Of a stretch of DNA of 64,000 nucleotides, positions 6,800 to 55,703 are shown piece after piece (the stretch's first letter is position 1; each line of letters begins with the position of its first letter). Source of the stretch: an uncultured Verrucomicrobiae bacterium (GTDB taxonomy: Bacteria; Verrucomicrobiota; Verrucomicrobiia; Chthoniobacterales; UBA10450). The notes below the pieces were generated by a model. That model saw only the letters and a list, made by a program, of their open reading frames with translations. It made no database searches and was not told the DNA's origin. The position numbers were made by a program, and so were the translations under genes. The stretch is taken from NCBI GenBank assembly GCA_963720895.1, contig CAVRGZ010000006.1:8328-72327 (forward strand). The letters are read 5' to 3'.

Positions 6800-7152
6800 G
6801 CGCGAACTTACTTCCAGGAGAAAGCAGTCTAAGTGGGATCGTTGGCGTGTTCGGCATCTTTCTTCCCATTTTCCCTGGACCCCCCGGCTAAAGTGATAAT
6901 GCGGTCCAACTCTTATCGCGGCCGGGTTGGTAGTGCCTCCCGTGCGATTGTGTAGCATTTTCGTCAGACGGTGCGATTGGGTCCGCACGAAGGGAAACGT
7001 CGGCCAGCCCCAAAACTGATCCTATTGGCCGGTCGCGGGTGTGGTTTGACTTCCGCTCGTGTGGCCGCTCTCTCGCTCGCCCTGCTGGCTTTCGAACTGC
7101 ATTTAGCCATAAATTTTCTTGCAACTTTTCCCGAATTCTGGCGAATTTGTTT

Positions 7153-8592
7153 ATGAACTTCCATCTCGGACAACGCCCCAGACCGACCCGTCTGGATAAC
7201 CGCATATCCCCGCCGTCTCGACCGCACTTGATCCTCCCCCTGATTTGTGCGGTTTCACTGGTAACAACAGCCCGAGCGACGACCGTGCTCGATCCGTTGC
7301 CGGAACCCTCGAGCACCCTCTTCGGCTACAGCGTCGCCTCTCTTGGAGACGTCAATGGAGATTCAGTGCCCGATTACGCAGTCGGAGCGCCTTACCAGGA
7401 TGGCGATTTTGTCTCGACCGTGACGGGCTTTGGGCTGCCGCAGAATGTTGGAAAAGTGCTTGTCATCGACGGAGCCACCTTGGCCACGCTGAGCGAAATG
7501 AATGACCCGGAATTTGAGCTGATACAGCCGCAGCATTTTGGCGGTCAACTGGGTTGGTCGCTCTCGGTCTCGAGTGATATCAATGGGGACGGGGTGGCCG
7601 ATGTGATCGCTGGGGTGCCGCATCACATTGCTGACCCAAACGTTCACGAGTCGATCATTAACGCGGGCAAAGCGCTCGTTTTCAGCGGCAAGGATGGCGC
7701 TCTGCTCTTTACTCTCCTGGATCCGGACGAACAGGAGGATGGCCTCTTTGGGAACTCTGTGGCCGCGCTGGGTGACGTCAATTCCGACGGGGTCGCTGAC
7801 TTTGCCGTGGGCGTACCTGGCCATGACATAGGAGACGAAGGAGATGGAGTGGCGAATGTGGGAACGGCTTACATCTTCAGCGGCAAGACGGGAGCCGTGA
7901 TTCGCACCCTGGAGGATCCTCCCCGTGGCGGAGAGGAGGCCGGTGCCGCCTTTGGGACGGCAATTGCCAACGCGGGTGATGTCAACAGTGATGGCGTTTC
8001 CGATGTCGTTGTGGGTGCGCCTGGCGAAGGCCGCGTTCATGTCTTCAATGGCAAGACGGGCGCGCTCCTCTATACGATCATCGGTCCCGAAACGGAATTG
8101 CTTACCTCCTTTGGGGCGGCGGTCGCCGGTGGGCAGGATTTCAGCAAGGATAAGAAGCCCGATATTGTTGTCGGTGCTCCTTTGCAATCGGGCAGCCGGG
8201 GCGCGGCCTATGTCTACAATGGACCTGATGGGACCTTGATTCGTCGCTTGAAATCGCCTGTTTCCCAGGCCTTCGCAAAGTTTGGGGCATCGGTTTACGC
8301 CGCGCCCGATCTGAGCGGAGATAAGCGGGCTGATATTATTGTTGGTGCTCCGGGCCAAAACGTGAACGGATTGCTCGGTGCTGGTCAGGCCTTTGTCTTT
8401 GACGGGGTTAAGGGCCGGCTTACGAGCACTCTGACAAGTGACAAGCCGCAAAGCAACGCCGGTTTCGGGACGGCCTTAAGTTCGATCCGTCCCGCGGGAA
8501 GCCAGGTCTCCACTCCCGTGGTTGGAGTACCTTACCAGGACTCATTCGATTCCATAACCCATCTGCAGATCGGCCAGATCGAGATTCAATAG
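7153..8592 (+). CDS. FG-GAP / integrin-alpha-like beta-propeller repeat protein, copy A
   Basis: The ORF track gives 7039..8592. I take the start as ATG 7153 (MNFHLGQRPRP...), matching copy B. It has repeated FG-GAP units with Ca-binding-like loops (FGYSVASLGDVNGDSVPDYAVGAP, FGNSVAALGDVNSDGVADFAVGVP, FGTAIANAGDVNSDGVSDVVVGAP, FGASVYAAPDLSGDKRADIIVGAP). Confidence 0.85.
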   Translation: MNFHLGQRPRPTRLDNRISPPSRPHLILPLICAVSLVTTARATTVLDPLPEPSSTLFGYSVASLGDVNGDSVPDYAVGAPYQDGDFVSTVTGFGLPQNVGKVLVIDGATLATLSEMNDPEFELIQPQHFGGQLGWSLSVSSDINGDGVADVIAGVPHHIADPNVHESIINAGKALVFSGKDGALLFTLLDPDEQEDGLFGNSVAALGDVNSDGVADFAVGVPGHDIGDEGDGVANVGTAYIFSGKTGAVIRTLEDPPRGGEEAGAAFGTAIANAGDVNSDGVSDVVVGAPGEGRVHVFNGKTGALLYTIIGPETELLTSFGAAVAGGQDFSKDKKPDIVVGAPLQSGSRGAAYVYNGPDGTLIRRLKSPVSQAFAKFGASVYAAPDLSGDKRADIIVGAPGQNVNGLLGAGQAFVFDGVKGRLTSTLTSDKPQSNAGFGTALSSIRPAGSQVSTPVVGVPYQDSFDSITHLQIGQIEIQ

Positions 8593-8600
8593 ACTAAAAC

Positions 8601-9809
8601 ATGAAAAACAAAACATCTATTCTTCTTAGTCTCGTGGGGTGCGCGCTTGGCGCGACCTTTACCAGCAGTGCATTGGCTAACCATCGAAGTGGCGATTTCG
8701 CCTTGCCCGAGATCATGACCGCTGGCGATTTCAATCAGGACGGCAACCTCGATCTCGCGGTCAACCTTTCTGGCTTCGATAACTTCGCGGTTCTGACCGG
8801 GGACGGTCACGGTGGTTTTACCCTGAAGAGTCATGTTGCGACCGATACGCTTCCGAAAAGTGTTGTTAGTGGAGACGTCGACGGTGATGGAAAGCTCGAC
8901 ATCGTGGCGGTCTCCGATTGGGGCTATACGATTAAGATCTTCCTCGGCGATGGCCTGGGTGGCTTCCATCTCTCCACTGTCCTGAATGGGGACGGAGAAC
9001 CAGTTAGAGTCCGGTTGGCCGATTTGGATAAGGACGGCAACCTTGACATTCTGGCCGATGCGCCAGCGGAAGGCATCCTCCTCATTTACTTCGGTCGCGG
9101 TGGCGGCGCTTTCAGTAATTCACCTCTCGAGCTGGAAGGATACACGAATCTCGCGCAGTTAATGACTGGCGATTTCAACAGAGATTCCAACCTCGATATT
9201 GCGTTTACCTATTTCGAGAACAAACTTGTGGATGGAACGCATTTGCAGATTCTCCTCGGCGACGGCCACCGTAATTTCACGGTCGGTCAAAATGTGGTGA
9301 TCAACTCGCAGTGCAATAACATCGAGGTCAGCGATTTGAACAAGGACGGTAAACTTGACCTTGTTCTCGCGGGAGCAATTTCGGAGAACGGCACAGGTCT
9401 CTTCATTTCCAGCTACCTCGGCGACGGCCACGGCAACTTTGCCGTGCAGCAAGTGATCGATCTCGGAGAAGGTGCCACCCGCGGGGAAATTTCGCTCGGT
9501 GACTTTAACGAGGATGGCAACATGGATGTTGCCTATCCATTGTCATCCGATGGCGGTATGAGACATGATTTCAGCACGGATCTCCTCATTTATCTCGGGG
9601 ATGGCGCCGGCAATTTCACCCAAGGCCAAACAGTCACTGTCGGGAAGGAACCCGGCTCCACCTGGACGGCTGATTTTAACAAGGACGGACACACAGATAT
9701 TGCCTGCACCAATCGCACCGATACGACGCTTTCGATTCTTCTTGGCAATGGAAATGGAACCTTTGTCACCCATGCCACCATTCCGTTGAACGCCTTGTCG
9801 ACGCCCTGA
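8601..9809 (+). CDS. FG-GAP/VCBS-repeat protein, copy A (intact)
   Basis: 402-aa ORF with a signal peptide (MKNKTSILLSLVGCALGATFTSSALA). It has seven or more repeats of GDFN.DGNLD.A........LGDG.G.F. It starts 9 nt after the preceding gene. Confidence 0.85.
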   Translation: MKNKTSILLSLVGCALGATFTSSALANHRSGDFALPEIMTAGDFNQDGNLDLAVNLSGFDNFAVLTGDGHGGFTLKSHVATDTLPKSVVSGDVDGDGKLDIVAVSDWGYTIKIFLGDGLGGFHLSTVLNGDGEPVRVRLADLDKDGNLDILADAPAEGILLIYFGRGGGAFSNSPLELEGYTNLAQLMTGDFNRDSNLDIAFTYFENKLVDGTHLQILLGDGHRNFTVGQNVVINSQCNNIEVSDLNKDGKLDLVLAGAISENGTGLFISSYLGDGHGNFAVQQVIDLGEGATRGEISLGDFNEDGNMDVAYPLSSDGGMRHDFSTDLLIYLGDGAGNFTQGQTVTVGKEPGSTWTADFNKDGHTDIACTNRTDTTLSILLGNGNGTFVTHATIPLNALSTP

Positions 9810-9851
9810 GGCCAGTGCGCAACGGCAGAGCCTGTCCGGAGGAGCGAATCG

Positions 9852-9884
9852 GAACTCCCTGGATGCCAGACATCTAGGGAGTTC
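9852..9884 (+). terminator. Hairpin between the two duplication units (possible terminator)
   Basis: GAACTCCCT (9852-9860) pairs with AGGGAGTTC (9876-9884) across a 15-nt loop and is followed by TTT. The loop is long and the T-run short, so this is weak as an intrinsic terminator. Confidence 0.3.
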
Positions 9885-9985
9885 TTTAGGCTCTCCCAAA
9901 ACGCCGGGGCGCAAAAGGGTCAGCAAGTAATTGAATTAGCCATAAATTTTCTTGCAACTTTTCCCGAATTCTGGCGAATTTGTTT

Positions 9986-11425
9986 ATGAACTTCCATCTC
10001 GGACAACGCCTCAGACCGACCCGTCTGGATAACCGCATATCCCCGCCGTCTCGACCGCACTTGATCCTCCCTCTGATTTGTGCGGTTTCACTGGTAACAA
10101 CAGCCCGAGCGACGACCGTGCTCGATCCGTTGCCGGAACCCTCGAGCACCCTCTTCGGCTACAGCGTCGCCTCTCTTGGAGACGTCAATGGAGATTCAGT
10201 GCCCGATTACGCAGTCGGAGCGCCTTACCAGGATGGCGATTTTGTCTCGACCGTGACGGGCTTTGGGCTGCCGCAGAATGTTGGAAAAGTGCTTGTCATC
10301 GACGGAGCCACCTTGGCCACGCTGAGCGAAATGAATGACCCGGAATTTGAGCTGATACAGCCGCAGCATTTTGGCGGTCAACTGGGTTGGTCGCTCTCGG
10401 TCTCGAGTGATATCAATGGGGACGGCGTGGCCGATGTGATCGCTGGGGTACCGCATCACATTGCTGACCCAAACGTTCACGAGTCGATCATTAACGCGGG
10501 CAAAGCGCTCGTTTTCAGCGGCAAGGATGGCGCTCTGCTCTTTACTCTCCTGGATCCGGACGAACAGGAGGATGGCCTCTTTGGGAACTCTGTGGCCGCG
10601 CTGGGTGACGTCAATTCCGACGGGGTCGCTGACTTTGCCGTGGGCGTACCTGGCCATGACATAGGAGACGAAGGAGATGGAGTGGCGAATGTGGGAACGG
10701 CTTACATCTTCAGCGGCAAGACAGGAGCCGTGATTCGCACCCTGGAGGATCCTCCCCGTGGCGGAGAGGAGGCCGGTGCCGCCTTTGGGACGGCAATTGC
10801 CAACGCGGGTGATGTCAACAGTGATGGCGTTTCCGATGTCGTTGTGGGTGCGCCTGGCGAAGGCCGCGTTCATGTCTTCAATGGCAAGACGGGCGCGCTC
10901 CTCTATACGATCGTCGGTCCCGAAACGGAATTGCTTACCTCCTTTGGGGCGGCGGTCGCCGGTGGGCAGGATTTCAGCAAGGATAAGAAGCCCGATATTG
11001 TTGTCGGTGCTCCTTTGCAATCGGGCAGCCGGGGCGCGGCCTATGTCTACAATGGACCTGATGGGACCTTGATTCGTCGCTTGAAATCGCCTGTTTCCCA
11101 GGCCTTCGCAAAGTTTGGGGCATCGGTTTACGCCGCGCCCGATCTGAGCGGAGATAAGCGGGCTGATATTATTGTTGGTGCTCCGGGCCAAAACGTGAAC
11201 GGATTGCTCGGTGCTGGTCAGGCCTTTGTCTTTGACGGGGTTAAGGGCCGGCTTACGAGCACTCTGACAAGTGACAAGCCGCAAAGCAACGCCGGTTTCG
11301 GGACGGCCTTAAGTTCGATCCGTCCCGCGGGAAGCCAGGTCTCCACTCCCGTGGTTCGAGTACCTTACCAGGACTCATTCGATTCCATAACCCATCTGCA
11401 GATCGGCCAGATCGAGATTCAATAG
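9986..11425 (+). CDS. FG-GAP / integrin-alpha-like beta-propeller repeat protein, copy B
   Basis: ORF 9980..11425 (TTG 9980 or ATG 9986). It differs from copy A at 3 residues (P/L near the N-terminus, I/V, G/R). Confidence 0.85.
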   Translation: MNFHLGQRLRPTRLDNRISPPSRPHLILPLICAVSLVTTARATTVLDPLPEPSSTLFGYSVASLGDVNGDSVPDYAVGAPYQDGDFVSTVTGFGLPQNVGKVLVIDGATLATLSEMNDPEFELIQPQHFGGQLGWSLSVSSDINGDGVADVIAGVPHHIADPNVHESIINAGKALVFSGKDGALLFTLLDPDEQEDGLFGNSVAALGDVNSDGVADFAVGVPGHDIGDEGDGVANVGTAYIFSGKTGAVIRTLEDPPRGGEEAGAAFGTAIANAGDVNSDGVSDVVVGAPGEGRVHVFNGKTGALLYTIVGPETELLTSFGAAVAGGQDFSKDKKPDIVVGAPLQSGSRGAAYVYNGPDGTLIRRLKSPVSQAFAKFGASVYAAPDLSGDKRADIIVGAPGQNVNGLLGAGQAFVFDGVKGRLTSTLTSDKPQSNAGFGTALSSIRPAGSQVSTPVVRVPYQDSFDSITHLQIGQIEIQ

Positions 11426-11433
11426 ACTAAAAC

Positions 11434-12640
11434 ATGAAAAACAAAACATCTATTCTTCTTAGTCTCGTGGGGTGCGCGCTTGGCGCGACCTTTACCAGCA
11501 GTGCATTGGCTAACCATCGAAGTGGCGATTTCGCCTTGCCCGAGATCATGACCGCTGGCGATTTCAATCAGGACGGCAACCTCGATCTCGCGGTCAACCT
11601 TTCTGGCTTCGATAACTTCGCGGTTCTGACCGGGGACGGTCACGGTGGTTTTACCCTGAAGAGTCATGTTGCGACCGATACGCTTCCGAAAAGTGTTGTT
11701 AGTGGAGACGTCGATGGTGATGGCAACCTCGATATCGTGGCGATCAACGATTGGGGGTATAGCATCAAGGTCTTCCTCGGCGATGGCCTCGGTGGTTTCC
11801 ATCTCTCCACTGTCCTGAATGGGGACGGAGAACCAAACCGAGTCCGGTTGGCCGATTTGGATAAAGACGGTAACCTTGACATTCTGGCCGATGCGCCAGC
11901 GGAAGGCATCCTCCTCATTTACTTCGGTCGCGGTGGCGGCGCTTTCAGTAACTCACCTTCTCGAGCTGGAAAAATATTCAAATCTTGTCCAGCTGAAAAC
12001 TGGCGATTTCAATAAAGATTCCAACCTCGATATTGCGATCACCTATTTCGAGAATAAGAATTCGGATGGGACTCATTTGCAAATTTTCCTCGGCGACGGC
12101 CACGGTAATTTCACGGTCGGTCAAAATGTAGTGATTAACTCGCAGTGCAATAACATCGAGGTCAGCGATCTGAATAAGGATGGCAACCTTGACCTTGTTC
12201 TGGCGGGAGCAGGCTCGGAGAATGACACAGGTCTCTTCATTTCCAGTTACCTCGGCGACGGCCATGGCAACTTTACCTTAAAGCAGGCGATCGACCTTGG
12301 AGAAGGTGCCACCCGTGGGGAAATTTCGCTCGGTGACTTTAACGAGGATGGCAACATGGATGTGGCTTTTCCTTTGTCTTCGAAGCAGATCCATCGTGAT
12401 AAAAGCACGGATCTGCTTATTTATCTTGGAGACGGCACCGGCAAATTTACGCAGGGTCAGACGGCGACTGTCGGGAACGAACCTGGCTCTACCTGGACGG
12501 CTGATTTTAACAAGGACGGGCACACAGATATTGCCTGCACCAATCGCACCGACGGGACGCTTTCGATTCTTCTTGGCAATGGAAATGGAACCTTTGTCAC
12601 CCATGCCACCATTCAGTTGAACGCCCTTTCGACGCCCTGA
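11434..12640 (+). pseudogene. FG-GAP/VCBS-repeat protein, copy B, interrupted by a +1 frameshift
   Basis: ORFs 11434..12015 and 11819..12640 together are colinear with copy A. Copy A reads cacctctcgag (9121-9131) and copy B reads caccttctcgag (about 11955-11966). The extra T shifts the frame. Confidence 0.7.
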
Positions 12641-12733: not shown

Positions 12734-14105
12734 TCAAGAGGGCACTGACATCCATTCTTCAGTGGTCGGGAGCGGGGAATTAGGTTCCCAAATAGCAGCC
12801 CGCTCGGGATGAAAGCGCGAACCGATCGGGATCGAATAATCGTCTTCGTGTTCGTACTCCCGTGTCCGCGCGAGCATTTTGCGGAACGCGAGAATCGCAC
12901 GCGAGGGCTGGTGCTCGGTCTCATAGACGCGACCGGCAAACGCATCAATCATCTCTTCGCGATAGAAGTGATGGACAAGTCCCGAGAAGGTGAACGGCTG
13001 CTCCCAAAAGAGGTCCACCATGTCTTCGAGGTTGTCGGCGCCCTTTTCGCAAAAGACCATGTGCTCGGCGAACGGATTCTCCGAGTCTCGTCCTTTGCCC
13101 CCGAGATACCTGAGCACGTGAGGAACGGCAAATTCCGCCTCACGCATCGTAGCCGAGAGGCCGAAGGAAAAAATGGGGTCAATAAAGCGGTGCGCGTCGC
13201 CGATACAGATAAAACCTTTCCCGCAAAACCGGCGCACTTGGTAAGAGTAGTTCGGTATTACATGCACGTCTTCGACCATCCTAATATCGAGAGACCGGGA
13301 CTTTAGGTCGGGGTTAATCTCGGGAAGGTAACTGCGAAAGAACTCTTCTCTGGTTTGGCCTGATTCCTGGAACGTCGCCGACGGTGCAACCAGTCCCAGA
13401 CTTACGACCTGATCGTCGATCGGGATGAACCAGGCCCAGTGGAACTTTTCCTTGTAAAAAATGAGCGTATTGCCTTTCGCCTCCGCGCCGGAACTGCCGC
13501 TGTCGCGGAGAGCACCGGTTACATGGGTGAAAAAGGCGATCTGTTTGTCATAGCTGCCGACATATTTCGGTCCAGTGATTCGCTGGTTCGCGAGGAAGGT
13601 CGCCATCCCGGAACAATCGAGCACCATTTCGGATTCAATGTCCTCCAACCCGCCATCGGGATGACGCATGGTTACTCCGCGCACCGCGCCATCTGCGCCG
13701 AGCAGCGCTTTCACGGCTTTGCCCCGCACGACCGTTGCGCCTCGTGCTTCGGACTCCTGCAGGAGCATTCGATCAAATTCGCTTCGGCGAACCTGCCATG
13801 TGGTTCCCGGCGACATTTTCCAATCCTGAGTGCGCGCCGCCACCGGGACGAACCAGGAGTTCTCCCCGGACGCGCCGTAGACCTTTACGCCATGTTTAAT
13901 CGGACAATTGGCGGCCTCCATTTTGTTCTCCAAACCAAGCCTCCGCATGTACCTGGCCCGCCTCTCCAGTCATCGACTCGCCAATATGGAAACGAGGAAA
14001 TTCTTCCTGTTCGAGGATAATCGGCCTGATGCCTTCACGAAGCAGAAACATGGCGGACATGGCGCCGCCAGGGCCTCCCCCAATAATGACGACGTCTGTT
14101 TTCAT
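12734..14105 (-). pseudogene. Flavin-dependent halogenase (Trp-halogenase family), one frameshift as assembled
   Basis: N-terminal ORF 13896..14105 has MKTDVVIIGGGPGGAMSA (GxGxxG) and FPRFHIGES. ORF 12734..13948 continues with CPIKHGVKVYG (conserved Lys) and FHWAWFIPI (WxWxIP motif). The frames join near 13950-13960. Confidence 0.75.
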
Positions 14106-14504
14106 GGATAAAGGCCAGCTCCACTCTCAGTTGTGACTAAGACCGCATCATTTCCCGAGCGGGCGGGACTTTTGCAAGTCGAGGGCAAAATCCAGGGTGC
14201 CGAAAAGGGTTCTGTCGAATTTCGTCCGATAATGAAAGCCGTGGACAGGCTCTGCGGTGCGAATTCATTGGTTTCGTCTACAGTAATTTTGTCTGGACTT
14301 GCAATAGAAAAGTTGCTTGATCGGCACGCTGCGAAGGCGCCTTTTCGGCGCTGCCGAATACTCAGAAGGCTTTTGGAATTTGATCGACCAAATCGTGGTG
14401 ACTCAACATGATCAAAGGATGACTTCGGCGCCAAAAAGCCTAATCACATTTTTAAACTCGGGATTGGATGGGGCAGCTTTTATTTTGTCCGGTCCTGCGA
14501 GCGA

Positions 14505-15385
14505 GTGTTGCCGCTGAGTTTGTTCAGCCTTCTGTTGTGGCCTCTCGCGGCTGCCTGGGACTTGATGCAAATTCGAGCGCGCAAGCCCTGGGTACACTGG
14601 CATCGTTTCCCGCGGTCATGGCGCCCGAAACGCTGGCGTTACGTTCTCCGGCACAGCCTCGGTCTCTATCACTCACAGCTGTTCTATATGTGGCCGGATC
14701 GTCTCACCAGTCCGCGTTGGCTGAACCGGTGTCGCTTCGAGGGCGACCGCAAATTGCTTGAACGCGCGGACGACGATCAAGGCATCGTCCTGGTTTCGGT
14801 ACATTTCGGGCCGTTTGAGATTTTGCCCTATTGGCTGCGCGCATATGGGATCCCAGCGACGAGCGTGCGCGCCGATCCGCCCGAAGCGCTTCGAAGCCTA
14901 ACGAATTATCAGTATTCTTTGAGTCCGCCAGCCGATACCCGGTGTTTATTTTCGCAAGTGATTTAACCCCCGTGCCGCGATTCTCGCACATCCGCAAGAT
15001 TGTCGGACCGGGGCGGCGATTGCTCGTCATGGTCGATCCGAATCGAGGTGTGATGGCCGATATCCCGTTTCAAGATCGATTGTTTCACATGGCCACTGGG
15101 GCAATCCAGCTGGCACAGATGTCGGGAGCCAAACTCATACCGTGCATGATCACGGAAGATTCCACTTGGAAATTTACCATTCACGTCGGTACCCCAGTGC
15201 CACAAGAATGGATTGGCCGGTCGCCGGACATGCAGGCAATTGGAACTCATTTGCTGCGGGAATTCTCCAAGGTGGTCACTCGTTTCCCAGTGCAATGTAA
15301 GATGCGCTGCCTGCGAGCGATGTGGCCGCTGCCGGATGATGGAATTGCAGAACGATCCGCGGTCCAAGCTGAAACCGTAGGCTAG
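14505..15385 (+). pseudogene. LpxL/HtrB-type (lysophospholipid/lipid A) acyltransferase, one frameshift as assembled
   Basis: ORF 14505..14966 (GTG start) has an N-terminal TM helix and VSVHFGPFE (an HX4D/E acyltransferase motif). ORF 14831..15385 continues with the C-terminal half (RRLLVMVDPNRG...ATGAIQLAQMSGAKLIP). The frames join near 14930-14945. Confidence 0.65.
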
Positions 15386-15438
15386 GGCCACGACATCGCC
15401 GTCCCTGAACTGAAGCCGGTGTTTGGAGGGGAAACGCC

Positions 15439-15789
15439 TTAGGCAGTAACTGGTTCCCGGACTGGCGTGGTCGCGAGGTTGGAGCCGTCCCCGCCGTTTT
15501 CTGAACCATTCATACCAATTCCCAGCTTCCGGTTAATGAAAATCTCGCAGTCGTTAAGCGTCTGAAAATTTTCCGGGAGCATGTCCGTGTCTTCGATCGT
15601 CAATGGAAAGGCAGTTTCCAGGAAATCGATCATCCGCAATGAACCAAGGGAATCGATGATATTGTTGGTCAGAAGCGGTTCGTCGTCCTTCAATTCGGTG
15701 AGGCCTCGACCGGCTGCGTATTCGAGAACGAATTCGCGAACCTTCCCTTTTACATCCCCAAGCGGTGTGTTCAAATTGTTTGCTGTCAT
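15439..15789 (-). CDS. Acyl carrier protein (stand-alone, with Gly/Asn-rich C-terminal tail)
   Basis: 116-aa ORF. The motif IIDSLGSLRMIDFLE is the DSL phosphopantetheine attachment-site pattern. The extra roughly 30-aa tail is GIGMNGSENGGDGSNLATTPVREPVTA. Confidence 0.8.
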   Translation of the reverse strand: MTANNLNTPLGDVKGKVREFVLEYAAGRGLTELKDDEPLLTNNIIDSLGSLRMIDFLETAFPLTIEDTDMLPENFQTLNDCEIFINRKLGIGMNGSENGGDGSNLATTPVREPVTA

Positions 15790-15930
15790 TTGGGTATTTT
15801 GTTAAACATATCGCGACCCTGTCGAGCACAATTTTATTCGGTGATTGACATTTTCGTTGCCGCTCGATGACATGGCGATTGCAAACTCCCGCTGTTGGAC
15901 ATTACGGATCTCAGGCGTGAGAAAGAGACT

Positions 15931-16932
15931 ATGAAATCAGAGGTTGGAATTCTGTCGGCGTCATTTCAGGTGCCAAAGGCCAAGCACACCGCTGAGGATC
16001 TATTTCACGAGGAAGGGGCTCTCTACAATCCTGAAATCGCTGCCAGGCTTGGAATTGCGCAGGTGTACCTTCAAGACGGAGCGGCGAGTGAGACCGCATC
16101 AAATATGGCGGTGGCGGCCGGCCGCGAAGCCCTACTGCGCGCCAAGGTCGATCCGCAGACCGTGAATGTCGTGGTTGAGTATTCCATTATGCCACAGGAA
16201 TACCTCGTGCCGGTCTGGAATATGAGCAACAAGGTTCAGGCCGAGGTGGGTGCCGCGAAGTCGTTCGTCGTCGGCTTCAGTGGTGGGGGCTCCAGCAATT
16301 TCATGGTCGCGCTCAGTTCAGCAGCCGCAATGTTGTCGGAAAATGAGGAACTGAAGACCGCCTTGCTCGTTACCGGCGACACCACGATCCCTGGCAATCG
16401 GGTCCTCAACCCGAAGGATCCGGTGACGATATTGGGCGATGGAGCGAGTGCAGTCGTCCTGCAGCGCGACTCACCTCGTAGTGTGGTGATCGACACCGAG
16501 CTATGGTCCGATGGTAGCAATCACGACATTTGTTACATTCCGGGCGGCTCACTGGTCCATCCCGAGGACATTGGCCTTTACCGGATGCAACTAGATAAGG
16601 CTCGCTATGACGCCTTTCCGAGGTCGGAAACGCTTCGTCGGATGAGCGATCGGCTGTTAGGCCGCGCCGGGCTGACTCTCTCCGACGTCGGTTGCGTGCT
16701 GTGTTCGAATGTCTCTGCGGAGGATGAAACGGCGATACAAAAGGTCTTTGACAACAAAGTCTCTCCGGTTTGTGCGGCCAATCGGGAGCGGCACGGACAT
16801 CTGCAAGGCACCGATTTCCCGCTCAACTATCTTTCCCTGGTCGAGAGCGGCAAGGTCAAGCAAGGCGACTACATACTCGCCGTGTCCCACGGGATGGGCG
16901 CAACCGTGGCGGTAACCCTCCTGCGTTATTGA
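15931..16932 (+). CDS. KAS III (FabH)-like protein with Ser in place of the nucleophile Cys
   Basis: ORF 15895..16932, likely start ATG 15931 (MKSEVGIL). It has the FabH-like fold pattern. The position of the FabH active-site Cys reads GFSGGGSSNF. The region equivalent to the FabH Asn reads ERHGHLQGTD. Confidence 0.75.
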   Translation: MKSEVGILSASFQVPKAKHTAEDLFHEEGALYNPEIAARLGIAQVYLQDGAASETASNMAVAAGREALLRAKVDPQTVNVVVEYSIMPQEYLVPVWNMSNKVQAEVGAAKSFVVGFSGGGSSNFMVALSSAAAMLSENEELKTALLVTGDTTIPGNRVLNPKDPVTILGDGASAVVLQRDSPRSVVIDTELWSDGSNHDICYIPGGSLVHPEDIGLYRMQLDKARYDAFPRSETLRRMSDRLLGRAGLTLSDVGCVLCSNVSAEDETAIQKVFDNKVSPVCAANRERHGHLQGTDFPLNYLSLVESGKVKQGDYILAVSHGMGATVAVTLLRY

Positions 16933-16957
16933 TGCGCAAGGATTTCGGAACTGAATT

Positions 16958-17977
16958 ATGAACGCCAGCATCGGCATCCTCGAAGCAAATTACTACCTTC
17001 CGTCCACCAAGAAGACTTTGTCGCAGGTCTTTGAAGATGAAGAAAAGCCCACTGCGGCCTTTGATGCCAATGTGGATTTCCAGAAGGATATCGGGATCGA
17101 TGCTTTACACATAGCGAAAAATGAAACGGCCGCCGACCTATGTATCAACGCTGCCAAGCTTACTATGTCCAAATCGGGAATCGATCCGGATGAGATTGAC
17201 CTGATCATAGACTTCACCAGCATCCCCGAAGACTATGTCGCGCCGACCTGGTCGGCGGCGGGGCAGGTTCAAAAGGCAATTGGAGCGACCCGTGCCTTCA
17301 CCACGGCGATTAACACAGGCGGTTGTGCCAGCTATCAGACCACCCTCAAAACTGCCTGTTCGCTCATGTCGGCTAACGATCGATATCAGACGGCGCTCCT
17401 TGTCGCCGGGGATAAGGCGCCTGAGCTCAATCACAACTACTTTCCCATCACTGTCGTTTCAGATGGGGGCAGCGCGGTTCTCCTGAGAAAAGGCATGACC
17501 ACGCGACGGATTCTGGGTGTTGAAGTCGCGACGGTGGGGAGACTGCACGATATGTGGGTTATTCCCGGCATTCACAATCGGAAAGCCGAGGACATAGGCG
17601 GCAGATATCCACGCTGGCTTCACGTTTGCGGCGATATCCAGCGATTTAACAAGGAGCTAATCCCAATTAATTTATTCATGTTTCGCAAGGTAATGCTCGG
17701 CGTCCTCAAGCAGGTCGGCAAAAAAATGCAGGACGTTGATTACTTCGTTTATCCCACCTTTTCTCTTTGGGATCAAAACGCTTTCATAAAGGCGTTTGGC
17801 TTGGCTCGGGAAAAAGTTTCCACGGAGAACATGCATCACGGGCATTTGCAGGAAACCGACATGGTGGTCGGCTATGTCGATGCGCTTGCAGCGGGTAAAA
17901 TTAAGGATGGCGACCTGGTTATGCTGGCCACCAACGGCGCCGGATTCTCCTGGGGAGCGTCCCTCGTTCAGCACTAA
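16958..17977 (+). CDS. KAS III (FabH)-like ketosynthase, Cys present
   Basis: 339-aa ORF. The active-site region is AINTGGCASYQ, with Cys retained. The Asn-equivalent region is NMHHGHLQETD. The C-terminus is GAGFSWGASLVQH, comparable with the FabH C-terminus GGGFTWGSALVRF. Confidence 0.8.
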   Translation: MNASIGILEANYYLPSTKKTLSQVFEDEEKPTAAFDANVDFQKDIGIDALHIAKNETAADLCINAAKLTMSKSGIDPDEIDLIIDFTSIPEDYVAPTWSAAGQVQKAIGATRAFTTAINTGGCASYQTTLKTACSLMSANDRYQTALLVAGDKAPELNHNYFPITVVSDGGSAVLLRKGMTTRRILGVEVATVGRLHDMWVIPGIHNRKAEDIGGRYPRWLHVCGDIQRFNKELIPINLFMFRKVMLGVLKQVGKKMQDVDYFVYPTFSLWDQNAFIKAFGLAREKVSTENMHHGHLQETDMVVGYVDALAAGKIKDGDLVMLATNGAGFSWGASLVQH

Positions 17978-17991
17978 AGACGGAGAAGTCT

Positions 17992-19722
17992 ATGATAATG
18001 CAAGAATCCAAGCACGATTTCGATGTTGCCATCCTTGGTAATGGATTGTCTGGCTCTTTGCTCGCCACCATTCTGAGCAAACAAGGAGTCAGCGTCGTCT
18101 TGATCGATGGCGAACAACATCCCCGCTTTGCGGTTGGCGAGTCGACCATCCCGCACACCTCTCTCCTCATTTCCCTCCTCGCCGAAAAATACGATCTTCC
18201 GGAGTTGGATGACTTGGTTGACACCGAGGGTCTGGCGAAGCATGTCTGCGGCACCTGCGGGATCAAGCGCCATTTTGGCTATGTCTATCATCGCCCAGAC
18301 CAGACTTACAACCGGACAGAGGGCCTGCAGTTCGGGACGGCGGCGCGCGACGAGAATCATTGGTTCCGTCAGGACATTGACGCTTATCTGCACAATCTGG
18401 CCGTGCACTACGGAGCAGTCCCACGCCAAAAAACCAAAGTTACGGGGGTCGAAATCGACACCGGCGGTGTCAGGTTGCAAACCTCGGCCGGCGAGGAAAT
18501 ACGCGCCCGCTATCTCGTCGACGGCACGGGCTATCGGAGCATCCTAGCTGATCGCTTCAACCTGCGCGAGAATCCTACTCGCTTAAAGCATCATTCACGG
18601 ACGCTCTTTACGCACATGGTGGACATCCCGCCATTCGACGATGCGCAAAATCCGCTCCCGATCTCCTATCACAACGGTACCCTGCATCATTGCTTTGAAC
18701 GGGGATGGTTCTGGGTTATTCCTTTCAATAACAACCCACTGTCGACCAATCCGATCATTAGTGTCGGCTTGACAATCGATCCACGTCGCTATCCCAAGCC
18801 GGAAATGTCTGCTGAACAAGAGTTCAATGAGTTTCTGCAGCGCTTTCCGAGTGTCGCCGAGCAGTTCAAAAATGCAAAGGCGGTCCGTCCCTGGGTCTCG
18901 ACCGATCGTCTTCAATATTCCTCTAAAAAGACAACTGGTTACCGCTACTGTCTGATGTCACATGCCTCCGGGTTTGTGGACCCACTTTTTTCCCGCGGCA
19001 TGTTTAATACGGTGGAGGTCATCTCCGCGCTGCTCGATCCTTTACTCGAGGCACTCACAACAGACAACTTCGACGAAGAATCCTTCCGCTCGATTGATGC
19101 GCAGCAGCAGTTGGTCCTCGACTATAATGATGACCTCGTAAACTGCTCCTTTATCTCCTGGAATGACTTTGATCTTTGGAATGCCTGGCTTCGCGTCTTT
19201 GGACTCGGAACCTTTCTCGCGGAATTCCATCTCATGAATGGGATGAGTGACTATACCCGGACCAAAGATTCCTCTTGTCTGAAGGGCCGGACAAAGAATC
19301 CGGTTTTCTGCGATTTTGAAGATCCTGATTATGCGGCGTTCTTCAGAGAATCGGTGGAAGCGGTGGAAGCCGTGGAAGCCGGCACCCTCGAAGCCAAAGA
19401 CGCCGCCAACCGAATCTTCGAGCTTGCGGATAGTTACTCATTCGAGGTCCCCATTCGTAAGGATGCGCTGGTCCGCGCACGCTGGGTCAGAGAAGAAGAC
19501 GAGCTCACGGAACGAGGCCTCGGCCGTGTCCGTCGCGGCTTCCGTTGGGCTTTAACCACGCCGCTGACCCGTGATCTGGTCAACAGTTCGCAGACCTTTT
19601 TCCGCTGGTGCGCACACCAACCCGATCCGCATCTCTTAATTCGCAACGGTTTGGCAGAAAAGACGCAGGACCCGTCCTTGGAAACCGCCGTTGCTCCCAC
19701 TGATCATCCAGGGGTCGATTAG
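17992..19722 (+). CDS. Flavin-dependent halogenase (Trp-halogenase family), long form, intact
   Basis: 576-aa ORF. It has DVAILGNGLSGS (dinucleotide-binding site), HPRFAVGES, CGIKRHFGYVY (conserved Lys) and ERGWFWVIPF (WxWxIP). A C-terminal extension of about 200 aa follows. Confidence 0.85.
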   Translation: MIMQESKHDFDVAILGNGLSGSLLATILSKQGVSVVLIDGEQHPRFAVGESTIPHTSLLISLLAEKYDLPELDDLVDTEGLAKHVCGTCGIKRHFGYVYHRPDQTYNRTEGLQFGTAARDENHWFRQDIDAYLHNLAVHYGAVPRQKTKVTGVEIDTGGVRLQTSAGEEIRARYLVDGTGYRSILADRFNLRENPTRLKHHSRTLFTHMVDIPPFDDAQNPLPISYHNGTLHHCFERGWFWVIPFNNNPLSTNPIISVGLTIDPRRYPKPEMSAEQEFNEFLQRFPSVAEQFKNAKAVRPWVSTDRLQYSSKKTTGYRYCLMSHASGFVDPLFSRGMFNTVEVISALLDPLLEALTTDNFDEESFRSIDAQQQLVLDYNDDLVNCSFISWNDFDLWNAWLRVFGLGTFLAEFHLMNGMSDYTRTKDSSCLKGRTKNPVFCDFEDPDYAAFFRESVEAVEAVEAGTLEAKDAANRIFELADSYSFEVPIRKDALVRARWVREEDELTERGLGRVRRGFRWALTTPLTRDLVNSSQTFFRWCAHQPDPHLLIRNGLAEKTQDPSLETAVAPTDHPGVD

Positions 19723-19857: not shown

Positions 19858-21051
19858 ATGCAACCCAGAAGATTCAACGGAGCAATGGTCCGGTTAATTC
19901 TCTGCGCGACTGCGACGTGGCTTTCCAGTCTGAGCGCAACATTCGCCGCGTCGACTTATGTCTATATCAACGCGAACATCAATATTCCCGGACAGAATGC
20001 GGTCATTGCATTGCAAAATGACGGCACCGGAAATTTGACTCCTGTCGCAGGATCACCTTTTGCCACGGGAGGCACGGGCGTCGCCGGGGTCGGCACTCTG
20101 CTCAACGACATTCAATGGGATTCTGATTATGAGCTGGTGCTGAATGCTGAGGGAACTCTTTTGTTCGCTGTCAACGGGCATTCGAATGACTTTTCTGCTT
20201 TCACGGTGAATGCAAATGGCAGCCTGACACTAATTTCTGGGTCGCCATTCGCCTCCCACGGCTCACAACCGGCATCGATCGGTTACAAGGACAACGGCGC
20301 CGGAGCAGGGATTGCGACCATGATAATTGCCAATAAGGATTCTGATCCTTTCCAGACGCAAACTGCGCCAAATTTCACAACCTTCCAGGTTGATTCGACC
20401 GGAGTTCCGATCTGGAACTCGAATTCTACCTTAACTCTGCCCGCGGGCAGCTCCCCCTGGCAGTTCGTTATGCCCAAAAACTCCAAGTCATTTTTTAGCA
20501 TTCTTTTTACCGGGGATGCAATTTACAGCTGCCGACTTTCCCGTGCAGGGCAGGTTACTATTACCAGTTCGCTACCTATAGGTGCGGAGAATGGAGGCGG
20601 GACGCTGAACCCGAAAAGTAATACTCTTTATGTAACTTTGCCCGTTCCGCGCCTCGTCAATGTTCTCTCCTACGATGCACGCTACAACGTTTCTCTCGCA
20701 GGGAGCGTCAACAGTACGGGATCCGCACCATGCTGGGCAACCACGAATCGGACGGGAACCCGGCTTTATGTTACCGAAACTCCGTCCGGGACGCTCAGTG
20801 CCTATGATATTACGGATCCGCTGGTCCCCGTTCTTTTACAGCACCTTGAGTTGGCCGGTTCGGCAGCCTACCCGACGCACGTCCGATTCGACCCCACCGA
20901 GACATTTCTCTATGTTCTCAACCGGCACGGCAAACTCCATGTGCTCGACGTGGCGGGCGATGGCACTTTGACGGAGAATCGCAGGCCTTATAACTTGGGT
21001 CTGCCGGACGGTAGGGTCCCGCCGCTTGGGTTGGCGGTTTTGCACAAATAG
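19858..21051 (+). CDS. Secreted beta-propeller protein, lactonase-like (7-bladed lactonase family fold)
   Basis: 397-aa ORF with a signal peptide (LILCATATWLSSLSATFAAS). Repeated units resemble G.L....GSPF..G..P..I......LYV.N..S..[VL]S.[FY] (for example NGSLTLISGSPFASHGSQPASI and TGTRLYVTETPSGTLSAYDI). The family assignment rests on pattern only. Confidence 0.55.
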   Translation: MQPRRFNGAMVRLILCATATWLSSLSATFAASTYVYINANINIPGQNAVIALQNDGTGNLTPVAGSPFATGGTGVAGVGTLLNDIQWDSDYELVLNAEGTLLFAVNGHSNDFSAFTVNANGSLTLISGSPFASHGSQPASIGYKDNGAGAGIATMIIANKDSDPFQTQTAPNFTTFQVDSTGVPIWNSNSTLTLPAGSSPWQFVMPKNSKSFFSILFTGDAIYSCRLSRAGQVTITSSLPIGAENGGGTLNPKSNTLYVTLPVPRLVNVLSYDARYNVSLAGSVNSTGSAPCWATTNRTGTRLYVTETPSGTLSAYDITDPLVPVLLQHLELAGSAAYPTHVRFDPTETFLYVLNRHGKLHVLDVAGDGTLTENRRPYNLGLPDGRVPPLGLAVLHK

Positions 21052-27179: not shown

Positions 27180-30100
27180 ATGATATTTCAGCGGACCAAA
27201 GTTGCGGGCGCAATCTTCGTCGCCATCTTCCAAAGTCCGGAGAGCGGGCGAGCTGTGCTGAGCAATCTGCGCCGGGGGGGATTCGGCCGGTCGGCGTTGT
27301 TGCGTTCCTCGGCGAGTGGCAAGGTGCGCGTAGGCGGCCGGCGCGCGGTTCGCGAGGCCGCTATCCCAGCTATGATTGGCCTTCTTACCGGGGCCTTTCT
27401 GCTCTGGCGGGAATGGCTGTCCACCGGCCCCGCGTCGACGCTGAAAATTGTTCTGATTCTGGCTGGATTCGCGATGGGAGCCGCGATCGTCGGTTGGTTC
27501 GTATCTCGCCTTTTCGAAAAACGCCCTGACGGCCCGAGTGAAGCCAGATTCAAGCGCTCGATCCTGCCCAATGAAACGATGGTGTTGGTCGAGGTGGCGC
27601 CCGGCGATGTTTCGCGGGTCTTGGAAATTTTGCGCGACGTCGGAGAAGACCCGTCGGTCCTGTTTGCTTTTCATTCGACAGCAAAATTTGAATTTGAGCC
27701 GACCACGCGACTTTTCCGTAGAGAAGCCCCTTCCGGCCAACGGCTCGCGGAAAAAGCAGCGCGCCTCGCGGAGTCGATTTCGACGCATCGCGGCAAAGTG
27801 GCGGGCGGCCCGTCCCTGCTTCGTCGCCTGCGCGAGAGCGAGTGCATCCTGAAGTGGACAGATGCCGGGCTCTCTGTGTCGGCGGAGGTGAACCAAAGCT
27901 TCGGGTTGTCGAGCGAGTGGCTCCTGGATAACGCCTACCTAATCCAGGAACAGATCAACGATGTCCGGCGCAGCCTTCCGCAAAAATATTACGCGAGAAC
28001 TGCCGATCGTTGCTGGCGGCCCGCAGGCAGGAGTTCCACGAGTTTATCGGATTGCGTCGGAAATTGTCGCGGAAAGTGATGGGGCACTGGATACTGAGAT
28101 CATTCGGAATTTTCTTGTCGCCTTCCAAACCGGCACGGCGCTCAAGATCGGCGAACTCTGGGCCATTCCCTCGATGTTGCGTCTGCGGCTGATCGAGTGT
28201 CTCCGCTCCCTGGCGATCGAAGTCGAGCAACTCCAGCAGGACAGTGAGGAAGCGGACTTTTGGGCGAACCGCCTCATCACAGCCGCGCGGCGCAGTCCCG
28301 AGCGGCTGCTCAAGATGACGGAGGAATTGGTCCAACGTCATCCACAACCGACGGCGCATTTTGCGAGCGAACTGGTGGCCCACCTCTACGACGAAGAAGC
28401 GCCCCTTCCGATCGTGACGAGCTGGCTCGAACGGTCTTTGCGCGCGCCTTTGCTCGAGGTGGTTCAGCAGGAACATCGGCGCCAGGCCGTGCAACAGGCT
28501 TCGCTTTCGAATGTGATTGGCAGTTGCCGCCGGCTGGCGCAGATCCAATGGGGAGAACTTTTCGAGGCGGTCAGCCGGCCCGATGCCGAACTGGCGAAAG
28601 ATCCTGCCGGTGTTTATCCACGGGTCGATTTCGAAACGCGTAATCGTTATCGCGACGCGGTCGAGCAATTGGCAAAATGGTCGAAGTGCTCGGAATTGGA
28701 AATCATCGAGCGCGGTCTCGCATTGGCTGCGGTTGCCGAGGACGAGGTCGCGCGACATATCGGCTACTATTTAATCGACGGGGGCAGGCCTGCACTCGAG
28801 CGGGAGGCCGGGTGTCGTGTTCCTTTGCGAGAACGTGAGCGGCGCTGGCTTCGCTCGCACGCCGCGGTGTTTTATTTTGGAAACATTTTCCTTCTTACTG
28901 TCCTGACAGTCGTCGCTCCTCTCGCACTTACGGCATCAGGCACTCCGCTATTCGTCCGCTGTCTGATCAGTCTTCTCCTCTTGCTGCCGGCGAACGAGCT
29001 GGCTGTCCTGACGGTAAACTATCTCGTCACGTCGCTCCTTCCTCCGCAGGTGCTGCCGAAAATGTCCTTTAGGAAGAAAGGCGTTCCTGACAATTGCCGG
29101 ACGCTCGTCGTGGTGCCGATGTTGCTCACGACGCCGGACGCGATTCGCAATGAGCTCGGCCGTCTCGAAATTCGTTACCTGGCGAATTCGGACCCGAATT
29201 TGCATTACGCGCTGCTCAGCGATTTTGCCGACGCCCCCATGCAGAACATGCCGGAGGACGCGGAATATTTCGAGATTGTCGCGCACGGAATCGCGGACCT
29301 GAATCAACGGCACGGCGCCGGACGTTTTTTTCTTTTTCATCGCCAGCGTTCCTGGGGCGAGAGCGAACAGCGCTGGCTCGGCTGGGAACGCAAGCGAGGC
29401 AAGCTGGAACAACTCAATCGCTTTCTCATGGGCGAATCTGCGCCAGAGCTGGAGCATTTCCTTTGCGTCGGAGAGAGAGGCGCGATCGATGACATCCGGT
29501 TTGTCATCACGTTGGATGCGGACACCCAACTGCTGCGCGACACAGCGCGGCGTTTGATCGAAACGCTGGCGCATCCTCTCAATCAGCCGCGCCTTTCGGC
29601 AGATGGACGCAAAGTCACACGCGGTTACACCATCATCCAACCGCGAGTCAGTGCCACCCTCCCAAGCGCAACCGCGACCTGGTTCTCACGCATCTTCGCC
29701 GATTCCCGCGGGATTGATCCTTATACGCATGCCGTCTCTGATGTTTATCAGGACCTGACCGGCGAAGGCAGTTATCACGGCAAGGGCATTTACGATCTGG
29801 CCGCGTTTCATCGCATTCTGTCCGGGCGTTTCCCCGAGGCGCATTTATTAAGTCATGATCTGCTGGAAGGGAGTCACGTTCGCGTCGCGCTCGCGACTGA
29901 TATTGAACTCCTTGATGTTTTTCCGTCGAGTTACATCGCCTGGTGGAATCGGCAACACCGTTGGGTCCGTGGTGATTGGCAGATCATCGACTGGTTGAAA
30001 CCGCGGGTTCCTGGTCGGGACGGCGGTGACTATCCCAATCCCCTTTCCTTCTTTAACCAATGGAAGATTTTCGACAATCTCCGCCGCAGCCTCATCCCGG

Positions 30101-36100: not shown

Positions 36101-36347
36101 GGAAGTTCTTGGGTTCAAACGGCGCGGCGACAGACTAATGATCGACCCGGTTGTGCCGAAGGACTGGTCGAGGTTCCGTCTGCGCTACCGCCATCAAAAT
36201 ACTCACTACGATATCGCGGTTGAAAACCCCGAGCATATCTCCCGTGGAGTCGATCTGGTCGAGTTGGATGGCGTAACCGTTCCCGACAAGACGATCATAC
36301 TGCGCGACGACGGTGGATCCCACGACATCCGGGTGCGCATGGGTTGA
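27180..36347 (+). pseudogene. Giant cyclic beta-1,2-glucan synthase-like protein (NdvB/Cgs-type glycosyltransferase plus GH94 phosphorylase-like domain), about 3050 aa, at least 3 frame disruptions as assembled
   Basis: ORFs 27117..28079, 27961..35376 and 35310..36347 read through as one protein. Segments are: SEWLLDNAYLIQEQINDVRRSLPQKYY | RELPIVAGGPQAGVPRVYRIASEIV; GELWAIPSMLRLRLIE; a GT region with VITLDADTQL; several TM helices; and a C-terminal GH94-type region with HGLPLIGTGDWNDGLNRVGVGGKGESIW. The junctions lie at about 27990 and about 35260-35300. Confidence 0.8.
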
Positions 36348-49178: not shown

Positions 49179-49295
49179 CGCGTGAACATAGAAAAGACGA
49201 GCGACCGCGGCAAAGCGATTCGTGCAAAAAGAAACGTCGCTCGGGCGGCTCCGACCGCCGGAGAGACGTTTCACGTCGGATGGAGACGAAAAGTG

Positions 49296-55701: not shown

Positions 55702-55703
55702 TC

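Follow-up and report, generated by a model that had tools for sequence, protein, structure and literature searches.

A conserved KAS III-like pair with a carrier protein and a flavin halogenase in uncultured Chthoniobacterales: a candidate starter-unit cassette for halogenated acyl products

Introduction

What can a bacterium make from two KAS III-like (ketoacyl synthase III-like) proteins, a discrete acyl carrier protein (ACP), an LpxL-type acyltransferase (AT) and two flavin-dependent halogenases when they are encoded side by side? This question is raised by a gene set at 12734-19722 of a 64,000-nucleotide stretch of contig CAVRGZ010000006.1 (assembly GCA_963720895.1; the whole stretch is hereafter called the window) from an uncultured Verrucomicrobiae bacterium of the order Chthoniobacterales. 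A sequence-only reading of the window had regarded it as a compact, halogenase-rich cluster whose KAS III-like pair condenses acyl chains to a doubly halogenated resorcinol- or pyrone-type lipid. Our comparison of related loci tentatively favours another answer, in which the locus would combine a starter-unit cassette with a lipid-type off-loading enzyme and yield a halogenated acyl lipid.

Conservation of the cassette across genomes

Gene coordinates were based on open reading frame (ORF) listing and translation, and protein families on Pfam and NCBIfam profile searches. Both bore out the sequence-only reading for the coordinates and order of eight features, genes and intergenic regions together (Table 1), and for the family assignments. 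Its statement that modular polyketide synthase (PKS) and nonribosomal peptide synthetase (NRPS) genes are lacking also holds at this locus, and the gene set is a real biosynthetic one. Since orthologues at 80-92% amino-acid identity keep the gene order in many genomes, the cluster genes are real rather than chance ORFs.

A scan of one genome per species (GTDB representatives) gave 63 loci, which were compared by tblastn and ORF clustering; individual loci are cited below by L numbers. KAS1 and KAS2 adjoin in every locus whose contig spans both genes, and halogenase-2 lies directly downstream of KAS2 in 43 of the 63 representative loci, distributed over Chthoniobacterales and other Verrucomicrobiota, Terriglobia (Acidobacteriota), Chloroflexota, Rhodothermales, Planctomycetota and Eiseniibacteriota. 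The halogenase gene is absent from 19 loci, which belong to Stappia, Mesorhizobium, other Alphaproteobacteria, Granulosicoccaceae and Desulfobacteraceae, and one more locus ends at a contig edge. In most loci an ACP gene stands no more than a few kb from the KAS pair, and KAS2 identity across phyla ranged from 46 to 92%. Comparison of the loci by ORF clustering showed no extra conserved partner gene of unknown function beside the KAS pair. The conserved core is ACP, KAS1, KAS2 and halogenase-2, and the co-conservation of KAS1, KAS2 and halogenase-2 over at least six phylum-level groups agrees with what the sequence-only reading required for its claim of novelty. For the full gene set this expectation was borne out in part: AT, ACP, KAS1, KAS2 and halogenase-2 are kept together in related Chthoniobacterales, but halogenase-1 is linked to the cassette in 3 loci only (the window, L011 and L069).

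Catalytic residues of the KAS III-like pair

Both KAS proteins match Pfam ACP_syn_III and ACP_syn_III_C and fall far under all NCBIfam FabH cut-offs. Comparison with solved structures gave only distant matches, to FabH (~1e-17), DpsC (~1e-14), OleA (~1e-7 to 3e-8) and CorB (2e-6), with a CerJ match for KAS1 only (2.8e-7), and OleA and CorB are no nearer to either protein in sequence than FabH and DpsC are. Among 1.84 billion cluster representatives searched, the KAS2 family forms a single tight cluster (50% identity) at 589 bits; a tier of KAS1-type partners comes next at ~200 bits, and generic FabH after that. By these scores, KAS1 and KAS2 are sister families, mutual nearest relatives that are well apart from generic FabH.

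The residues of the two proteins depart from those of condensing enzymes. Cys123, His296 and Asp301 of KAS2 are invariant in 43 of 43 sequences, and alignment to DpsC and FabH places Thr267 at the position of FabH His244 and His296 at that of FabH Asn274, with a GH-x4-D motif that KAS2 and DpsC have aligned. KAS1 has Asn260 at the FabH His position and keeps His290 and Asp295, while its position 121, that of the nucleophile, is occupied among 49 homologues by Ser (31), Ala (14), Cys (3) or Glu (1), Ala being found in the close Chthoniobacterales relatives L020 and L022. The Cys-His-Asn triad of condensing KAS III (FabH) was therefore found in neither protein. As far as the residues indicate, KAS2 carries instead the Cys-His-Asp triad of KS III-like transacylases, in which His and Asp are five residues apart and which forms the active site of ChlB3 and CerJ (PMC9573744). 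An AlphaFold2 model of KAS2 (pLDDT 81) did not discriminate its subfamily, as Foldseek returned TM scores of ~0.8 at ~20% identity for FabH, DpsC, OleA, PqsBC and ChlB3 alike, and a closer fit to CerJ/ChlB3 than to condensing KS III enzymes was not observed.

Because its nucleophile position is not conserved, KAS1 is probably a non-catalytic partner of KAS2. The sequence-only reading had called it KAS III-like with Ser, of which the fold family stands, whereas the Ser is not a conserved catalytic residue. Given that the two families are sisters whose genes always adjoin, the simplest reading is a KAS1/KAS2 heterodimer with one active site, for which PqsBC of quinolone synthesis offers a precedent. 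PqsBC is likewise a FabH-fold heterodimer encoded by adjacent genes, with one catalytic and one degenerate subunit and a Foldseek TM of ~0.8. It differs in its low identity (~19%), in a pqs operon that has neither ACP nor halogenase and in an unrelated chemistry (2-aminobenzoylacetate and octanoyl). PqsC uses a Cys-His dyad.

Partner genes in other lineages

NRPS genes that start with a condensation (C) domain abut the cassette in 15 loci. In Chthoniobacterales and Terriglobia these encode single-module enzymes with condensation, adenylation, thiolation and thioesterase domains (C-A-T-TE). Sulfotelmatobacter, Chloroflexota and Eiseniibacteriota have C-A-T with a PKS module after it, and one Planctomycetota contig carries a partial C-A. 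Their A-domain codes (GrsA numbering) include DILQLGMIWK, VDWVISLADK and DVQIIAQIVK, which we take to be Gly-, beta-Ala- and Pro-like codes, respectively. A C-A-T-TE NRPS with the DILQLGMIWK-type code stands beside ACP/KAS1 in nine loci (L017, L018, L023, L026, L027, L028, L031, L033 and L062), four of which also carry an LpxL-type AT; this type of locus suggests that those organisms make halogenated N-acyl-glycine-type lipoamino acids.

Other partners were found as well. Six Chthoniobacterales loci add an amino-sugar set (DegT aminotransferase, epimerase/dehydratase and GT1). Metagenome-assembled genomes of Desulfobacteraceae (L065 3871-17802; L066 7197-15423) have KAS1-KAS2-ACP inside a type II PKS-like cluster together with a FabA-like dehydratase, an acyl-CoA dehydrogenase, an AMP-ligase, a type III PKS-like protein, an arginase-family protein and three ketosynthase/chain-length factor (KS/CLF)-like proteins. 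The cultured Mesorhizobium sp. Root554 and Stappia stellulata DSM 5886 (L054 5384-12123; L064 5224-12121) have KAS1-KAS2 without a halogenase, in a conserved set composed of acyl-CoA dehydrogenase, ACP, B12-binding radical SAM enzyme, KAS1, KAS2 and an ECH_2 (enoyl-CoA) hydratase/hydrolase. Their KAS1 homologue bears the NCBI name 'hypothetical protein', and the set looks like another uncharacterised pathway.

Across these loci the constant part is ACP with KAS1/KAS2 and the variable part is the consumer of the ACP-bound acyl group; hence the constant part behaves as an initiation or starter-unit module. The range of acceptor partners, from NRPS, PKS modules and type II PKS-like genes to amino-sugar genes and AT, supports the cassette model for the window.

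The two halogenases

Halogenase-2 matches Pfam Trp_halogenase and FAD_binding_3 above cut-offs, and its PDB matches are the tetracycline 7-halogenase CtcP (4e-133, residues 8-476) and the phloroglucinol halogenase PltM (3e-93, residues 8-485), with 45% identity to CtcP over 466 aligned positions; ChlB4 scores 8e-19. K92 aligns with CtcP Lys98, the catalytic Lys of that enzyme (PMC12400496), and is invariant in 40 of 40 homologues. The three Gly of GNGLSG, the GxGxxG FAD motif, are equally invariant in these 40, as are GWFWVIPF (the WxWxIP motif that sets halogenases apart from monooxygenases), GESTIP and DPLFSRG, while the last ~50 residues are poorly conserved. More than 2000 homologues occur in metagenomes, and the best 120 listed share 60-92% identity. 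The catalytic Lys, the FAD motifs and a C-terminal helical region are common to halogenase-2, CtcP and PltM; the genomic context is in contrast wholly different, as the halogenase-2 locus has no tetracycline or pyoluteorin genes.

Halogenase-1 has a Pfam Trp_halogenase match of 1.1e-25, FAD_binding_3 also above cut-off, and full-length PDB similarity to Bmp2 (2.5e-70), with Mpy16, ChlB4 and PltA at 1e-37 to 1e-40. It carries GGGPGG and HWAWFIPI, and the Lys of its 'PIKHGV' aligns with that of Bmp2 'DKPGV'; the GxGxxG, conserved-Lys and WxWxIP motifs that the sequence-only reading saw in both halogenases are indeed there. Its sequence places halogenase-1 in the class of halogenases that act on carrier-protein-bound substrates, and JGI labels its homologues pyrrole-2-carbonyl-PCP brominase. 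The pyrrolyl-S-carrier protein halogenases Bmp2, PltA and Mpy16 are its nearest relatives, but neither a prolyl-AMP ligase nor a prolyl-carrier dehydrogenase is found nearby, which makes a pyrrole substrate following Bmp/Plt logic unlikely, and we rejected it.

Linkage in only 3 loci marks halogenase-1 as an accessory gene, and the sequence-only reading missed that just one of the two halogenases is conserved in the cluster. Its picture of a halogenase-rich locus with a doubly halogenated product was not sustained, since the other close homologues of halogenase-1 (70-76% identity) are lone genes elsewhere, as are most of its homologues in Verrucomicrobia. Two such lone homologues, in other Chthoniobacterales (L070 9001-13951; L071 9001-12641), lie outside biosynthetic clusters beside two-component regulators, a second related FAD enzyme and Alginate_exp-type porins. 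The gene order in L011 and L069 is AT(-)...KAS1-KAS2-halogenase-2-halogenase-1, after which FG-GAP genes follow in L069. Compared with these two loci, the AT-to-halogenase-2 block of the window is inverted relative to halogenase-1 and the FG-GAP genes.

Carrier protein and acyltransferase

The ACP of the window has no Pfam match, PP-binding included, while related copies do have PP-binding, and its NCBIfam ACP matches are weak (36.5 and 29.4 bits). It nonetheless agrees with the ACP type, a small acidic helical protein with a DSL serine for phosphopantetheine, and this DSL motif is invariant in 38 of 38 homologues. The top NCBIfam match is 'ACP for OlsHI' (36 bits against a cut-off of 130); an ornithine-lipid OlsH/OlsI pathway was rejected, as its GH3-like ligase and alpha/beta-hydrolase are both absent here.

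AT matches Pfam Lip_A_acyltrans at 28.1 bits against a cut-off of 22.3, a weak score, with further weak NCBIfam matches to phosphatidylinositol mannoside (PIM) acyltransferase and LpxL. H100-x4-E105, which corresponds to the HX4(D/E) motif of LpxL/LPLAT enzymes, is invariant in 22 of 22 homologues. LpxL-family enzymes use acyl-ACP donors, and the earlier suggestion that AT is an off-loading or anchoring enzyme remains plausible in view of this invariant motif. AT is present in 22 of the 43 halogenase-2 loci, all of them in Verrucomicrobiota, and it is the neighbour of the conserved unit in the window as in the majority of Chthoniobacterales.

Proposed pathway and alternative explanations

Starting from the observed architecture, catalytic residues and partner spectrum, we infer the heterodimer, acyl unit, halogenation site and acceptor as follows. 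The KAS1/KAS2 heterodimer, with its single active site in KAS2, would load or prime a short acyl unit on ACP, either by a DpsC-like priming condensation to a beta-ketoacyl-ACP or by ChlB3-like transacylation. Halogenase-2, with FADH2 from a reductase encoded elsewhere, may then halogenate an electron-rich carbon of the acyl unit; the candidate sites are the active methylene/enol of a beta-keto thioester and a phenolic ring that arises from it. A second halogen may come, in this sub-lineage, from the Bmp2/PltA-like halogenase-1. Finally, the LpxL-type AT would transfer the halogenated acyl group from its ACP donor to a membrane lipid or glycolipid, at a hydroxyl or amine.

Several observations weigh against this starter-unit proposal. 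AT is missing from 21 of the 43 halogenase-2 loci, some of which have neither AT nor NRPS nearby, and its family assignment depends on weak profile scores. For malonyl decarboxylation DpsC and FabH rely on a second His that is missing from KAS2, so that a priming condensation is not assured from the residues of KAS2. The KAS1/KAS2 family has no characterised substrate or product, which leaves acyl unit and halogenation site as guesses. A flavin reductase of the Flavin_Reduct type was not found among the window ORFs scanned, which did not include all small ORFs. Many halogenases use a reductase encoded elsewhere, and the missing partner does not exclude membership. The main tension concerns halogenase-2: those CtcP/PltM-clade enzymes that have been characterised use free phenolic molecules, not carrier-bound acyl groups (PMC12400496), and by analogy such substrates would fit a phenol-acylating pathway better, as discussed below.

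The integrity of the cluster also bears on the proposal. Halogenase-1 (1372 nt) and AT (881 nt) are not intact ORFs, which the sequence-only reading missed. The initial 50 codons of halogenase-1 are in another frame than the remainder, and the gene has exactly one extra base relative to the intact L011 orthologue (86% DNA identity). AT is broken into two overlapping ORFs, with one base missing relative to L001, L006 and L008 (positions in Table 1). If both frameshifts were real, the pathway would be incomplete in this organism, and the cluster could be decaying to a working ACP-KAS1-KAS2-halogenase-2 core or to nothing. Such decay would account for a one-base indel in each of the two genes against intact orthologues; the deposited record likewise truncates halogenase-1, which it annotates as a 395-aa fragment (P0247), and the inverted AT-to-halogenase-2 block implies a recent rearrangement. 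Against it, each gene has a single indel, and once corrected both stay open and match intact orthologues along their length (halogenase-1 88% identical to that of L011 over residues 1-453; AT 86-87% identical to those of L001/L006/L008 over residues 2-294). In addition, at least eight unrelated genes across the window are split alike, housekeeping-type ones included (class III aminotransferase, HtrA-like protease, ABC transporter and GH94 glucan synthase among them), a pattern typical of an indel-prone consensus, and the sister assemblies L025 and L069 also have fragmented gene calls. As so many window genes are split in the same way, the two cluster frameshifts are probably consensus errors rather than gene decay, and we consider decay unlikely.

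Alternatively, the locus may encode a phenol-acylating pathway comparable to those of DIF-1 or PltM/PhlACB. Halogenase-2 would act on a free phenol made elsewhere, and KAS1/KAS2 would O- or C-acylate this phenol with an acyl group from ACP, as ChlB6 and CerJ serve other acceptors; a halogenated acyl-phenol would result as a signal or antibiotic, with AT in a peripheral role. It is the use of free phenols by the characterised CtcP/PltM enzymes that keeps this alternative alive. The KAS2 triad is moreover that of acyl-transferring KS III homologues, and the chlorothricin pathway unites two KS III-like transacylases, a discrete ACP and a flavin halogenase (PMC9573744). However, a phenol-making enzyme (type III PKS or chorismate-derived route) is absent from the window and most related loci, the lack of a conserved nucleophile in KAS1 makes two independent transacylases in the manner of ChlB3 and ChlB6 unlikely, and the tight linkage to NRPSs with an N-terminal C domain suggests that an ACP-bound species is passed on. 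We accordingly regard phenol acylation as rather improbable.

Still more improbable, and the least supported route in that condensing-enzyme residues and partner genes are missing, is the one put forward by the sequence-only reading, in which the KAS III-like pair works like DarB, PpyS, MxnB/CorB or OleA and builds, head to head, a dialkylresorcinol- or pyrone-type product that both halogenases then halogenate and the LpxL-type AT anchors as a membrane lipid. Paired KAS III-like proteins and an ACP are present, CtcP and PltM halogenate polyketide phenols and weak similarity to OleA and CorB exists, but that similarity is weaker than to FabH and DpsC and is not favoured by the fold search; KAS2 has Cys-His-Asp without equivalents of the His244 and Asn274 found in condensing KAS III, OleA and CorB, KAS1 has no conserved nucleophile, a DarA-type or aromatase partner occurs in no locus, halogenase-1 is not a conserved member, and the NRPS and type II PKS partners elsewhere imply an acyl starter rather than a finished aromatic lipid. 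Carbazole-type logic (two KS III, ACP and halogenase) was rejected, as neither a thiamine diphosphate (ThDP) enzyme nor a cyclase is nearby.

Relation to characterised systems

A full-text literature search on gene-set keywords returned no published description of this gene set, in accordance with the sequence-only reading, which did not recognise it as a described cluster. In chlorothricin biosynthesis, ChlB2, ChlB3, ChlB4 and ChlB6 combine KS III-fold Cys-His-Asp enzymes, a discrete ACP and a flavin halogenase that works on a carrier-bound acyl group before its transfer to an acceptor (PMC9573744), and KAS2 shares its triad with this sub-pathway and with CerJ. ChlB3 and ChlB6 are, however, homodimeric, independent and ~20% identical to KAS2, whereas the proteins considered here form an obligate pair of which one has no conserved nucleophile. 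The locus also has no 6-methylsalicylate synthase or sugar acceptor, and halogenase-2 belongs to the CtcP/PltM clade and is not ChlB4-like.

Initiation KS III enzymes of the DpsC/ZhuH type resemble the cassette in that a KS III homologue and a dedicated ACP give a non-acetate starter. The GH-x4-D motif aligns with KAS2, and the Desulfobacteraceae KAS pair sits in a type II PKS-like cluster. DpsC nevertheless has a Ser nucleophile and a second His (His266) where KAS2 has Cys and Thr, their similarity is low (E ~1e-14), and no heterodimer with a degenerate partner is reported for DpsC.

Lipoinitiation cassettes of lipopeptides (for example fabH/acp of CDA) use a dedicated ACP and KS III to make a tailored short acyl group for an N-terminal C domain, and loci related to the window have such NRPS partners. 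The differences are that the window itself has no NRPS, that its tailoring enzyme is a flavin halogenase and that its KS is a divergent heteropair.

Aryl-polyene and flexirubin clusters (LpxL-like AT, DarA/DarB) also place an LPLAT/LpxL-type AT beside an ACP-dependent pathway, and a halogenase occurs in some of them. Their KS/CLF, ketoreductase (KR), dehydratase (DH), DarA, ammonia-lyase and LolA/MMPL export genes are absent from the window ORFs. As to a Dar/OleA-type assignment, the Cys-His-Asn triad (with a Glu base) of such KS enzymes is not conserved, and the comparison, made with OleA and CorB, gave weaker matches than that to FabH.

Overall, the enzyme superfamilies are all known, while their combination and the KAS1/KAS2 clade have no characterised precedent; this is an orphan and widespread cluster family.

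Locus layout and neighbouring features

Table 1. Features of the cassette and its adjoining gene in the window
Feature	Coordinates	Strand	Remarks
Halogenase-1	12734..14105	minus	Bmp2/PltA/Mpy16-type flavin-dependent halogenase; accessory; +1 frameshift near 13948
Divergent intergenic region, halogenase-1/AT	14106..14504		399 nt
AT, LpxL/LPLAT-type acyltransferase	14505..15385	plus	proposed off-loading enzyme; -1 frameshift between 14938 and 14939
ACP	15439..15789	minus	dedicated; 116 aa; DSL phosphopantetheine site
Divergent intergenic region, ACP/KAS1	15790..15930		141 nt
KAS1, KAS III-like	15931..16932	plus	without conserved nucleophile (Ser121 here)
KAS2, KAS III-like	16958..17977	plus	putative catalytic subunit; Cys123/His296/Asp301
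Halogenase-2	17992..19722	plus	CtcP/PltM-clade flavin-dependent halogenase
Lactonase-like protein	19858..21051	plus	seven-bladed beta-propeller; N-terminal hydrophobic signal-like segment; Pfam Lactonase 2.4e-8

The spacing of the core genes is operon-like, with gaps of 25 nt between KAS1 and KAS2 and 14 nt between KAS2 and halogenase-2. Rfam gave no match in 14106..14504, where promoter and terminator consensus matches were not convincing and not above shuffled expectation. Two weak sigma-70-like matches on the minus strand of 15790..15930 were below shuffled expectation, and no riboswitch or other RNA element, promoter or terminator was above chance at 12-22 kb.

The lactonase-like propeller adjoins the cassette in ~12 of the 43 halogenase-2 loci (Verrucomicrobiota and Terriglobia), which makes it a frequent neighbour of uncertain cluster membership. 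After this gene, the closest relatives encode a Sulfotransfer_1 protein and a conserved 264-aa protein without Pfam match (L001 14051-14869, with equivalents in L006, L007 and L008), both of which are absent from the window.

On the other side of the cassette, a two-gene unit of FG-GAP repeat proteins is duplicated in tandem at 7039-9809 and 9980-12640; the period is ~2833 nt and the copies are 86-99% identical. The second copy of the second gene is frameshifted, and L069 has the same four genes beside halogenase-1. FG-GAP repeat proteins, some with UnbV_ASPIC, adjoin the cassette in L005/L040 (4350-7579), L031, L038, L069 (10567-16073) and the window (7039-12640). This adjacency, seen in Chloroflexota, several Verrucomicrobiota and the window, may be coincidence or a functional link. 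The G+C content is 0.53-0.57 in window positions 1-22000, which hold the cluster and the secreted repeat proteins, in comparison to 0.575-0.62 in 24000-64000.

Genes that are truncated or divided between neighbouring ORFs of different frame lie at 11434-12640, 27961-36347, 38195-39713, 46436-46957, 48300-49274, 50455-52253 and 54312-56763; they include the FG-GAP protein (second copy), a GH94 cyclic-glucan-synthase-like giant gene, a class III aminotransferase, an alpha-galactosidase, a Lyase_1 enzyme, an ABC transporter and an HtrA-like protease. At 36561-38147 (minus strand) a single ORF joins S4 and FtsJ-like methyltransferase domains (TlyA-like) to a complete NAD kinase, through either a gene fusion or an assembly error that merged two neighbouring genes.

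Biological meaning of the cassette

Chthoniobacterales and Terriglobia are abundant uncultured soil lineages. The occurrence of the cassette in both, together with its high conservation across phyla, makes it look like a widespread soil-bacterial trait and not a rare antibiotic cluster. To solve it would yield new starter-unit chemistry for NRPS, PKS and lipid pathways, add a third and very common substrate type to those of the CtcP/PltM halogenases, and provide both a new heterodimeric KS III-like catalyst and a genetic handle on which organisms make halogenated organic matter in soil. Intact orthologous clusters, compact at ~5-6 kb, are suited to heterologous expression.

It is conceivable, though on balance doubtful, that KAS1/KAS2 represents a new functional class of heterodimeric thiolase-fold enzyme which, with ACP and the CtcP-like halogenase, makes an unseen halogenated acyl block. 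This block would be built into membrane lipids by the LpxL-type AT in Chthoniobacterales, or into N-acyl-glycine-type lipoamino acids by the single-module NRPS in other Verrucomicrobiota and in Acidobacteriota. If this were true, organohalogen lipids would be made regularly by some of the most abundant uncultured bacteria of soil, and natural organochlorine in soil would have a biological source in them.

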